DNA from: Mesorhizobium sp. WSM3859
GTDB taxonomy: Bacteria > Pseudomonadota > Alphaproteobacteria > Rhizobiales > Rhizobiaceae
Direction: 5' to 3'
DNA: 64,000 bases
Assembly: GCF_002295065.1 (NCBI RefSeq)
Contig: NZ_NSGG01000001.1
Coordinates: 270,553-334,552 of the forward strand
Shown: positions 51,451 through 51,934 of the stretch, one piece after another
How the letters are laid out: each line of letters starts with the position of its first letter
How positions within the stretch are numbered: position 1 is the first letter of the stretch
Program-made: the position numbers and the translations under genes
Notes under the pieces: generated by a model
The model's input: only the letters and a program-made list of their open reading frames with translations
Told to the model about the DNA's origin: nothing
Databases searched by the model: none

Positions 51451-51456
51451 GGGATA

Positions 51457-51488
51457 GGCAGTAGGCAGTAGGCAGTAGGCAGTAGGGA
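51457..51488 (+). repeat. tandem heptamer array (GGCAGTA)x4
   Basis: It was seen directly immediately after the acyl-CoA dehydrogenase stop. It is the inverted counterpart of the array at 51864-51917. Confidence 0.8.
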
Positions 51489-51491
51489 AAG

Positions 51492-51860
51492 ATGACCGGC
51501 AAGATCAACTCATACAAGGATTTGATCGTCTGGCAGCAAGCCATGGATTTGGCCGTCGCTACCTACTCCTTGACCAAGGCATGGCCGAGAGAGGAATTGT
51601 ATGGGCTGACCAGCCAAATCCGCCGCTCAGCCACATCTATCCCCGCAAACATTGCGGAAGGTTACGGGCGAGATAACACCGGTTCCTATCAGCAGTTTCT
51701 CAGGATAGCGCAGGGCTCTCTAAAGGAGCTCGAGACGCACCTCCAGATCGCTGAACGCATCGGCCTGGCCACTCACGACCAGGTTCATCATATGCTGTCA
51801 GCCACAGAAGCCATCGGAAAAATGCTTCGCCAGCTTATTATTAGACTCGCACCTGAATAG
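51492..51860 (+). CDS. four-helix-bundle protein (23S rRNA intervening-sequence protein / Avd-like family, TIGR02436)
   Basis: 122 aa. The family signature is present (LIVWQQAMDLAVATYSLTKAWPREELYGLTSQIRRSATSIPANIAEGYGR ... GSLKELETHLQIAERIG). A GGGAAAG RBS is present. GC is lower than in the flanking genes. Confidence 0.8.
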   Translation: MTGKINSYKDLIVWQQAMDLAVATYSLTKAWPREELYGLTSQIRRSATSIPANIAEGYGRDNTGSYQQFLRIAQGSLKELETHLQIAERIGLATHDQVHHMLSATEAIGKMLRQLIIRLAPE

Positions 51861-51863
51861 ACC

Positions 51864-51917
51864 TCCTACTGCCTACTGCCTACTGCCTACTGCCTACTGC
51901 CTACTGCCTACTGCCTA
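51864..51917 (+). repeat. tandem heptamer array (CTACTGC)x7, reverse complement of the upstream (GGCAGTA)n array
   Basis: It was seen directly. Together with the upstream array it brackets the four-helix-bundle gene in inverted orientation. Confidence 0.8.
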
Positions 51918-51934
51918 ACCCTGGGAGCACCACT

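Follow-up and report, generated by a model that had tools for sequence, protein, structure and literature searches.

The subject of this analysis is a gene cassette in the genome of Mesorhizobium sp. WSM3859. It is located in a 64,000-nucleotide stretch of contig NZ_NSGG01000001.1 (the window), between a gene for an acyl-CoA dehydrogenase (acd) and mmsB, and consists of a small gene for a four-helix-bundle (4HB) protein enclosed by two tandem heptamer arrays in inverted orientation. All features of this locus are given on the + strand. The upstream host gene acd (50284-51450; Pfam Acyl-CoA_dh_N/M/1 in the list of open reading frames, ORFs) ends with a TAA codon at 51448-51450, and 4 nt separate this stop codon from the G-rich left array (51455-51486). 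This array contains 4.6 copies of TAGGCAG with 100% matches in Tandem Repeats Finder (TRF), i.e. four full GGCAGTA units at 51457-51484. The cassette gene (51492-51860), recognized from the ORF list and by profile search, encodes a 122-amino-acid protein of the PF05635/TIGR02436 family. Directly before its ATG lies the purine-rich stretch AGGGAAAG (51483-51491) that, judged from the letters, is possibly the ribosome-binding site of the cassette gene, supplied by the last array unit. The C-rich right array (51865-51917; CCTACTG, 7.6 copies, 100% matches in TRF) comprises seven full TACTGCC units and begins 4 nt past the TAG stop codon of the cassette gene. Directly outside the inverted repeat the sequence GGGAG (51923-51927) is the likely Shine-Dalgarno sequence of the downstream host gene mmsB (51935-52819), which encodes 3-hydroxyisobutyrate dehydrogenase (TIGR01692, 453.8 bits, cut-off 291.6); GGAG or GGGAG is similarly placed before mmsB in sites that lack the cassette.

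The two arrays are reverse complements of each other. Over 32 nt the arms agree for 100%, and they can be extended by a degenerate outermost part AGGGA (51450-51454), which pairs except for one mismatch with the ACCCT (51918-51922) detected by the inverted-repeat search, to arms of 37 nt (51450-51486 and 51886-51922) that agree for 97%. TRF found no other period-7 arrays in the window. The 14-mer GGCAGTAGGCAGTA occurs nine times exactly, always within the two arrays, where 0.09 occurrences are expected from shuffled sequences, and one further occurrence with 2 mismatches was seen at 3417. The GC content amounts to about 0.55 over the cassette versus about 0.65 in its surroundings. The initial annotation of this DNA had described a small gene of lower GC content between an acyl-CoA dehydrogenase gene and mmsB, framed by tandem heptamer arrays as an inverted repeat, and both parts of this description were borne out.

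Folding of the sense RNA (51440-51930) resulted in a minimum free energy structure in which the ORF is closed off by a stem of about 35 bp, with the left array as its 5' arm and the right array as its 3' arm. The stem is also present in the centroid fold. The fold energy was -199.4 kcal/mol versus -158 +/- 6 for shuffled sequences (z = -6.6), and the large stem-loop around the gene that had been proposed earlier is thus also what RNA structure prediction returns. The antisense strand of the same region folds equally well. A sigma-70-like promoter was not found in 50000-53100, and the sole + strand terminator-like site in this interval is situated after mmsB. The lack of a promoter-like site and the sense orientation of the gene, which follows the acd stop codon and precedes the ribosome-binding site of mmsB, suggest that the cassette would be transcribed by read-through from the host operon. 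Cassettes were co-directional with their neighbours in all annotated examples seen. Phase variation, which had been suggested as a consequence of the arrays, is unlikely, since both arrays lie outside the coding sequence and outside any promoter-like site.

The family assignment of the cassette protein, also made in the initial annotation, holds, as the scores were far above the cut-offs for PF05635 (133.5 bits, cut-off 33.8), TIGR02436 (130.3, cut-off 24) and NF008911 (177.7, cut-off 137). The family core motif Q-x-R-R-x(3)-S-x(3)-N-I-A-E-G-Y-x-R is present, and in an alignment with cyanobacterial members (39-52% identity) the columns Q42, R44, R45, S49, N53, I54, A55, E56, G57, Y58 and R60 are invariant. 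By sequence the closest PDB entry is 2GSC (E=1.7e-23), and 2RLD (1.8e-5) was also matched, each entry having 5 chains; the match to these solved members would predict a four-helix-bundle fold. A protein recorded for Mesorhizobium sp. WSM3859 agrees with the window protein at 100% identity. The protein is near neutral (isoelectric point 8.1). A dN/dS of 0.05-0.10 versus orthologues shows strong purifying selection on the cassette gene. Matches were absent for the protein in PADLOC and in a tblastn search of 50,697 deposited phage genomes, and for the region 51300-52100 in Rfam. Known defence genes, phage genes and RNA families therefore do not account for the cassette. The sole match in PHROG was the distant PHROG 3206, 'Avd protein of DGR' (diversity-generating retroelement; E=8.6e-10). 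A protein 66% identical to the cassette protein (P0077) is labelled Salmonella enterica and is encoded on a contig of 608 bp; this label probably reflects contamination and not a real enterobacterial copy.

The surroundings of the gene family were surveyed in 131 PF05635 loci of which both flanks were available, mainly obtained by scanning metagenome and viral contigs with a family alignment. A flanking inverted repeat and/or array was present at 17 of the 17 Mesorhizobium-type loci, 45 of the 67 metagenome loci, 25 of the 39 viral-contig loci and 6 of the 8 plasmid loci. The arrays had a period of 7 (65 arrays) or 8 (34), and once each of 6 and 11. Their polarity was nearly constant: G exceeded C in 50 of 52 upstream arrays, and C exceeded G in 46 of 49 downstream arrays. 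In 736 kb away from PF05635 genes 19 period-7/8 arrays were counted, so that such arrays are approximately 90-fold denser in the flanks of PF05635 genes; arrays away from cassettes were likewise rare in 464 kb of related loci. In 22 of 24 distinct combinations (22 different units) the left unit and the reverse complement of its right counterpart differed at no more than one position, and units from different loci mostly differed from one another at 2-4 positions. Formation of a G-quadruplex was rejected as a common function, as 11 of the 24 distinct units are without GGG and the window unit GGCAGTA has only GG.

The plasmid loci, found by tblastn, were mostly cyanobacterial PF05635 copies with flanks of the same design built from quite different units (GGGTGTA / TACACCC in Calothrix, GGGAACA / TGTTCCC in Nostoc, AAGGGAA / CTTTTCC in Geminocystis and octamers in Gemmatirosa). 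In Picosynechococcus sp. PCC 7003 the cassette (plasmid NZ_CP016476.1, gene at 689-1045; locus L113) carries GGAGATA / TATCTCC units and is inserted between cas10 and cmr3 in a type III-B CRISPR operon. A statistical association of '23S rRNA IVP' with CRISPR modules has been reported (PMC10910872), and insertions of cassettes in cas operons may underlie this reported association of the PF05635 domain. PF05635 genes with typical heptamer arms were also seen on IMG/VR contigs that are classified as viral (L194-L196, L205, L208, L234/L235 and others). In a metagenome contig (Ga0172367_10118192, 244-1615; L131) a gene-less G/C pair at 244-343 is followed by a G-array, a 4HB gene, a second G-array, a 191-amino-acid ORF without assigned function (885-1460) and a C-rich array (1585-1615). 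It may therefore be that arrays can hold other cargo as well, or that they can be nested.

In most of the close PF05635 relatives, from several phyla, a G-rich array upstream of the gene is combined with a complementary C-rich array downstream. This recurrence, which matches ORF-bearing intervening sequences (IVSs) of 23S rRNA, was missed in the initial annotation. A published link between such arrays and the PF05635 gene was not found in the openly searchable literature, subscription literature being outside the search, and the association of the family with inverted arrays of 7-8-nt units is apparently general and undescribed. The G-then-C polarity reads identically from either strand and is accordingly a property of the element. 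It possibly prevents a C-rich arm of the RNA, which would attract Rho, from being exposed ahead of its partner; another possibility is that it supplies a purine-rich leader that acts as ribosome-binding site.

IVSs are inserted in 23S (or 16S) rRNA genes, typically in helix 9, 25 or 45, and ORF-bearing ones occur in Leptospira and Coxiella burnetii. In the plasmid search a PF05635 gene of Azospirillum lipoferum (L112) was found within a gene for 23S rRNA (Rfam LSU, 1118 bits), and its inverted arms consist of degenerate heptamers (CAGAGGA/CGGATGA... versus TCCGTCC/TCTGTCT...). The IVS of Coxiella burnetii has a terminal stem of 28 bp that is cleaved by RNase III at the first repeat within the stem, as determined in vitro and by rapid amplification of cDNA ends, and its S23p ORF is preceded by GACAGAT heptamers in tandem, two or three of them depending on the strain; RNase III excision is cited for other bacterial IVSs as well (PMC4990558). 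The heptamer arms of the Azospirillum 23S insertion and the stem and heptamers of Coxiella indicate that the window cassette and an ORF-bearing IVS are elements of one kind. In its architecture it is very probably an IVS-type PF05635 cassette that sits outside rRNA in an mRNA operon.

Comparable insertions occur in other operons. In Mesorhizobium and its relatives three loci bear cassettes: the acd-mmsB junction, the junction between a glutamine-synthetase-like gene and a gene for an FAD oxidoreductase, where paralogues of 66-75% identity are found, and a position downstream of radC, where another paralogue is situated in Kumtagia. At the sister loci the cassette genes are always co-directional with the upstream gene and the units are octamers (GGGGAGTA, GGGCAGTA and GGGGAGCA) in 3 to 36.5 copies. 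Their left arrays typically start at, or include, the stop codon of the upstream gene, and their right arrays start a median 4 nt past the cassette stop codon. In L006 the outer units are of the GGGGAGTA type and the inner units of the GGGCAGTA type in both arms, i.e. the order of the variants is mirrored. In a Mesorhizobium locus (L012, CP173356.1) the left array (2705-2996) contains 36.5 copies of AGGGGAGC over 292 nt with 99% matches and the right array (3374-3398) only 3.1 copies; between the left unit and the complement of the right one there is a single transition.

Xanthomonas campestris contains 186 GGGAATC arrays, 70 of which are paired convergently; most of the arrays occupy intergenic regions between genes of the same direction, and they are length-variable, transcribed and without assigned function (Rehm et al., PMC4692102). 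One of these arrays is listed between bccP (XCC0517) and XCC0516 (PMC4692102, supplementary table). XCC0516 is the PF05635 protein that was crystallized as 2GSC, the entry closest to the window protein in the PDB. Its gene lies between accB and accC (X. campestris L244/L245, 1923-2373; X. sacchari L247/L249, 1983-2433) in the order accB - GGGAATC GGGAGTG GAGAATC GGGAATC - 4HB - CCCATTC CCCATTC TCGACTC CCTATTC - accC, with four GGGAATC-type units per side and variants mirrored between the arms. The accB-accC operon is an essential operon of fatty-acid synthesis. In the Nostoc edaphicum plasmid pNe_5 (L239-L243, 1-250000) 7 is the commonest tandem period, and both PF05635 genes are flanked by arrays; in addition at least 7 gene-less G-then-C pairs with spacers of about 10-170 nt were counted, and no C-then-G pair was found in these 250 kb. 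The gene-less Nostoc pairs correspond to the STRR heptamer hairpins that lie between co-transcribed genes, e.g. hupS and hupL, and elsewhere, and that have been proposed to stabilize transcripts or couple translation (PMC2670836).

Genomic context was obtained from relatives whose cassette protein is 66-91% identical to that of the window. Dozens of Mesorhizobium genomes encode proteins of 85-100% identity, and these are located at the acd-mmsB junction wherever context was fetched. The number of units differs between orthologous cassettes: compared with 4.6 (left) and 7.6 (right) in the window, 3.6 and at least 9 were found in L114 and 9.7 and 4.6 in L019, whereas L001 has a degenerate left array with GGCAATA-like units and 7.9 copies on the right, and L002 and L005 have 4.3 copies of GGCAATA on the left and 3.9 on the right. 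The earlier suggestion that the arrays slip is supported by these differences. In Mesorhizobium sp. ES1-1 (L019, 2000-2500) the left array starts inside the end of acd, so that acd terminates at a TAG supplied by the array, and the 4HB reading frame is apparently broken, as the tblastn match falls into two frames; the copy seems to be in decay. Many short-read contigs terminate within the arrays. In practice this means that the arrays break short-read assemblies, and they can provide stop codons to upstream genes.

The states of the junction were surveyed by a search for MmsB with one genome per species. An empty junction with a plain acd/mmsB spacer of 25-45 nt was found in four Mesorhizobium species, in Brucella/Ochrobactrum and in Phyllobacterium. 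Four more basal lineages, L024 (Nitratireductor), L025, L029 and L033, have gene-less inverted heptamer arrays at this position, among them a hairpin of GGCAGTC/GGCAATG units with a 3-nt loop (L025) and the arrays (GTGAGTA)x7 ... CTACTCC (L033). In a tree of the flanking genes the full, empty and gene-less states interleave, and the nearest neighbour of each full locus is an empty one. The cassette has been lost, or replaced by an empty allele, several times at this junction. Comparison with empty sites showed that about 10 nt of spacer are replaced by the cassette, without a recognizable target-site duplication. An identical, fixed and unique insertion in every genome would have spoken against the initial view, and this is not what was seen: several Mesorhizobium species have no cassette at the orthologous junction, and other loci do carry cassettes.

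The synonymous divergence (dS) between the window and L001 is 0.78 for the cassette gene, 0.52 for acd and 0.65 for mmsB, and the protein clades follow the loci, each locus having its own clade. A cassette divergence that is at least that of the flanks, together with a clade per locus, indicates an old resident of Mesorhizobium and not a recent arrival, and recent horizontal spread within the genus was rejected on these grounds. The mobility that had been envisaged initially is visible only over deep time. The arrays are 100% uniform despite a dS of about 0.8 in the enclosed gene, which implies that array units are turned over much faster than point mutations accumulate.

In the neighbourhood of the cassette, the ten large ORFs within about 10 kb encode transporters, CobQ, an aminotransferase, a peptidase and a major facilitator superfamily protein, and three had no Pfam match at E<=1e-5. 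According to Pfam none of the ten contains a reverse transcriptase (RT) domain, and neither in the cassette nor in the large ORFs nearby was a transposase found. A direct repeat resembling the template and variable repeats (TR/VR) of a DGR was not found in 41-62 kb of the window; the sole direct repeat of at least 40 nt in this interval (43566 and 44385) lies inside an ABC-transporter ORF (43134-44756) with two ABC_tran stretches. Upstream of acd a divergent region on the - strand (48058-50144) contains a 205-amino-acid ORF (49527-50144) and a gene for a CobQ-like amidotransferase (48058-49713). Owing to these divergent genes, an intergenic region of its own, at about 50145-50283, precedes the acd-mmsB pair. 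At the syntenic locus L001 the first gene upstream of acd is a match to the Pfam family DMSP_lyase. A separate, large and imperfect inverted repeat is present in an intergenic region some 2 kb past mmsB (54812-55000), with arms of 63 nt that are 83% complementary and a spacer of 63 nt; it may be a member of a family of intergenic repeat elements.

The mechanism that we favour for the cassette follows the example of the 23S rRNA IVSs. After transcription by read-through from the host operon, the arrays would pair in the transcript as a perfect duplex of about 32-37 bp, with the entire gene in its loop. By analogy with the IVSs, RNase III would cut this duplex, thereby freeing the 4HB message and separating the acd and mmsB messages, which would explain why even an essential operon such as accB-accC can tolerate an insertion. 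Replication slippage would add and remove array units, and the match between the arms would be preserved by inter-arm correction through template switching or gene conversion, by selection in favour of a long duplex, or by both. That 7-nt units prevail may be due simply to the published slippage bias of bacterial polymerases (cited in PMC4692102 and PMC4679880), or it may be inherited from a common ancestor with occasional shifts from 7 to 8. The 4HB protein would be functional and, by analogy with its relative Avd, would probably bind nucleic acid. The whole chain, from IVS-type cassette through operon read-through and duplex stem to RNase III processing, has in our judgement a slightly better than even chance of being correct.

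Several observations weigh against this chain. Selection on an RNA helix usually leaves an excess of G:U over A:C mismatches. In the sense transcript, however, the arms contained 90 G:U and 102 A:C positions (25 versus 27 loci), i.e. there is no G:U excess, and complementarity may therefore be maintained at the level of DNA. Thus it would be kept at least partly by a strand-symmetric DNA process, for example slippage combined with template switching between the arms, and apparently not by selection for RNA pairing alone. The inequality of the arms in L012, with 36.5 versus 3.1 units, goes far beyond the needs of a duplex. A crude test of orientation on unannotated contigs, based on the longest ORF, gave only 36:24 and 30:20 and was too noisy for use. 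According to the Coxiella study S23p is probably not expressed (PMC4990558), and the role of the PF05635 protein may differ among lineages. Finally, the survey scans cover the closest 80 and 45 relatives returned (about 35-90% identity), which are a part of the family, and the thresholds for calling inverted repeats in the survey were ad hoc and set by the author.

The strand symmetry of the arm mismatches is what homogenization at the DNA level predicts, and it would fit an explanation in which the inverted arrays act as single-stranded DNA hairpins or cruciforms, with the 4HB protein as a dedicated partner that generates, maintains or moves them. The protein would possibly recruit a polymerase or nuclease as Avd recruits the RT, and the gene-bearing copies would be 'autonomous' and the gene-less ones dependants (cf. 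RAYT/REPINs). The uniformity of the arrays next to the diverged gene, the gene-less arrays at the acd-mmsB junction, the surplus of gene-less over gene-bearing pairs on the Nostoc plasmid (at least 7 versus 2, without a C-then-G pair), the enclosure of a PF05635 gene by one of the convergent pairs of X. campestris and the polarity as a property of DNA that is identical from both strands all agree with it. However, a transposase, HUH nuclease, integrase or polymerase was not found in or near the cassette among the large ORFs within about 10 kb (Pfam), and a target-site duplication was not recognizable. The clades follow the loci with a divergence not below that of the flanking genes, so that no recent movement is visible in Mesorhizobium; non-cassette arrays are essentially absent from the window and rare in the related loci; and slippage of heptamers alone is a published explanation of their abundance (cited in PMC4692102 and PMC4679880). 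We consider this explanation unlikely, and its detailed form with a recruited enzyme and dependent gene-less copies equally so.

The persistence of the arms at acd-mmsB after loss of the gene (L024, L025, L029 and L033) would also fit an intercistronic mRNA structure that serves the host by tuning mmsB relative to acd, with the 4HB gene as a passenger in the loop. Such a stem could be a stabilizer, a processing site, a translational coupler or a G-quadruplex/duplex switch. The roles proposed for the STRR hairpins, e.g. between hupS and hupL (PMC2670836), the end of the right array just 5' of the mmsB Shine-Dalgarno sequence and the variation of array length among strains, which would provide graded variation, are in line with this idea. 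Yet the same architecture is found whatever the neighbours are (accB-accC, cas10-cmr3, conjugation genes or 23S rRNA), several close relatives manage with the plain spacer of 25-45 nt, and a G-quadruplex is no common requirement, given the GG runs of GGCAGTA and the 11 of 24 units without GGG. In addition, the strong purifying selection on the 4HB gene indicates that it is not a neutral passenger. A host-serving stem is quite improbable, and so is each of the specific forms named.

A more far-reaching proposal, for which we see just as slight a chance, is that PF05635 proteins in general are the dedicated partners of G-rich inverted arrays of 7-8-nt units, which they would generate, maintain or spread. 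Equally conjectural is its corollary that the window cassette, the ORF-bearing 23S IVSs, the GGGAATC pairs of Xanthomonas and the cyanobacterial STRR hairpins form one class of elements. By analogy with RAYT/REPIN, the gene-less pairs would then be non-autonomous derivatives, and the G-then-C polarity would be the footprint of a mechanism, e.g. addition of G strands at both 3' ends of a break; both suggestions are as doubtful as the proposal itself. Least of all survives the notion of a DGR remnant or satellite, in which the gene would be an Avd whose RT and template repeat lie elsewhere or were lost: the similarity to PHROG 3206 and to the Avd models NF033474 (25 bits versus 80) and PF22296 (27.4 versus 40) is weak and, for both curated models, far below the cut-offs, whereas PF05635, TIGR02436 and NF008911 are far exceeded, the RT and TR/VR are missing from the intervals given above, and the cassette gene occurs in housekeeping operons of many genomes with no retroelement genes called alongside, so that this reading was rejected as extremely improbable and the initial statement that the locus is not a canonical DGR stands.

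With an IVS-type cassette processed from an mRNA operon as the preferred reading, the known systems can be compared as follows. Avd is likewise a small four-helix-bundle protein and a distant homologue, the PDB relatives 2GSC and 2RLD having been deposited with five chains each. Avd is strongly basic, whereas the window protein is near neutral and its cassette is without RT or TR/VR. The RAYT/REPIN system has in common with the present one a single- or few-copy gene flanked by an inverted short intergenic repeat and accompanied by many gene-less hairpin copies, as on the Nostoc plasmid and in Xanthomonas. It differs in that PF05635 is without an HUH/Y1 nuclease motif or known catalytic domain, in that the cassette repeats are tandem 7-8-nt arrays whereas REP is a palindrome of 20-35 nt, and in that the cassettes give no evidence of recent spread.

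The heptamers of Xanthomonas and the STRR hairpins are also tandem G-rich 7-nt units. Mostly they occupy intergenic regions between genes of the same direction, they are often paired convergently and could then fold into stem-loops, they are transcribed, and their length varies among relatives (PMC4692102, PMC2670836). XCC0516 of Xanthomonas is inside such a pair. In those studies, however, the repeats were treated as stand-alone simple sequence repeats or as G-quadruplex motifs without connection to a gene, whereas the window pair encloses a conserved one. Unlike the GGGAATC and GGGGAYT repeats studied there, GGCAGTA has no GGG run for a canonical G-quadruplex, and arrays are rare outside cassettes in Mesorhizobium as against hundreds per genome in Xanthomonas and Nostoc. 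One architecture is thus common to three puzzles that were described separately, i.e. the 23S IVSs with an ORF (1990s), the STRR and Xanthomonas heptamers, and the PF05635 family. If the link is true, all three would become experimentally tractable in ordinary operons of culturable Mesorhizobium and Xanthomonas.

With the ORF-bearing 23S IVSs the cassette shares the protein family, the terminal inverted repeats that can pair as a long stem with the ORF inside (28 bp for Coxiella and 32-37 bp for the window), tandem heptamers of variable number before the ORF (2-3 in Coxiella, 4.6 in the window and 3.6-9.7 in orthologous cassettes), a sporadic occurrence among strains, a GC content below that of the host and the lack of a promoter of its own, so that transcription would come from the host unit. 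It differs in its position between protein-coding genes of an mRNA operon, without an Rfam match, instead of in 23S rRNA, and in its arms, which are long perfect tandem arrays where the IVS repeats are short and imperfect. The RNase III excision that has been demonstrated for IVSs would, for the window cassette, be expected by analogy, and its gene is under strong purifying selection whereas the Coxiella ORF is apparently decaying.

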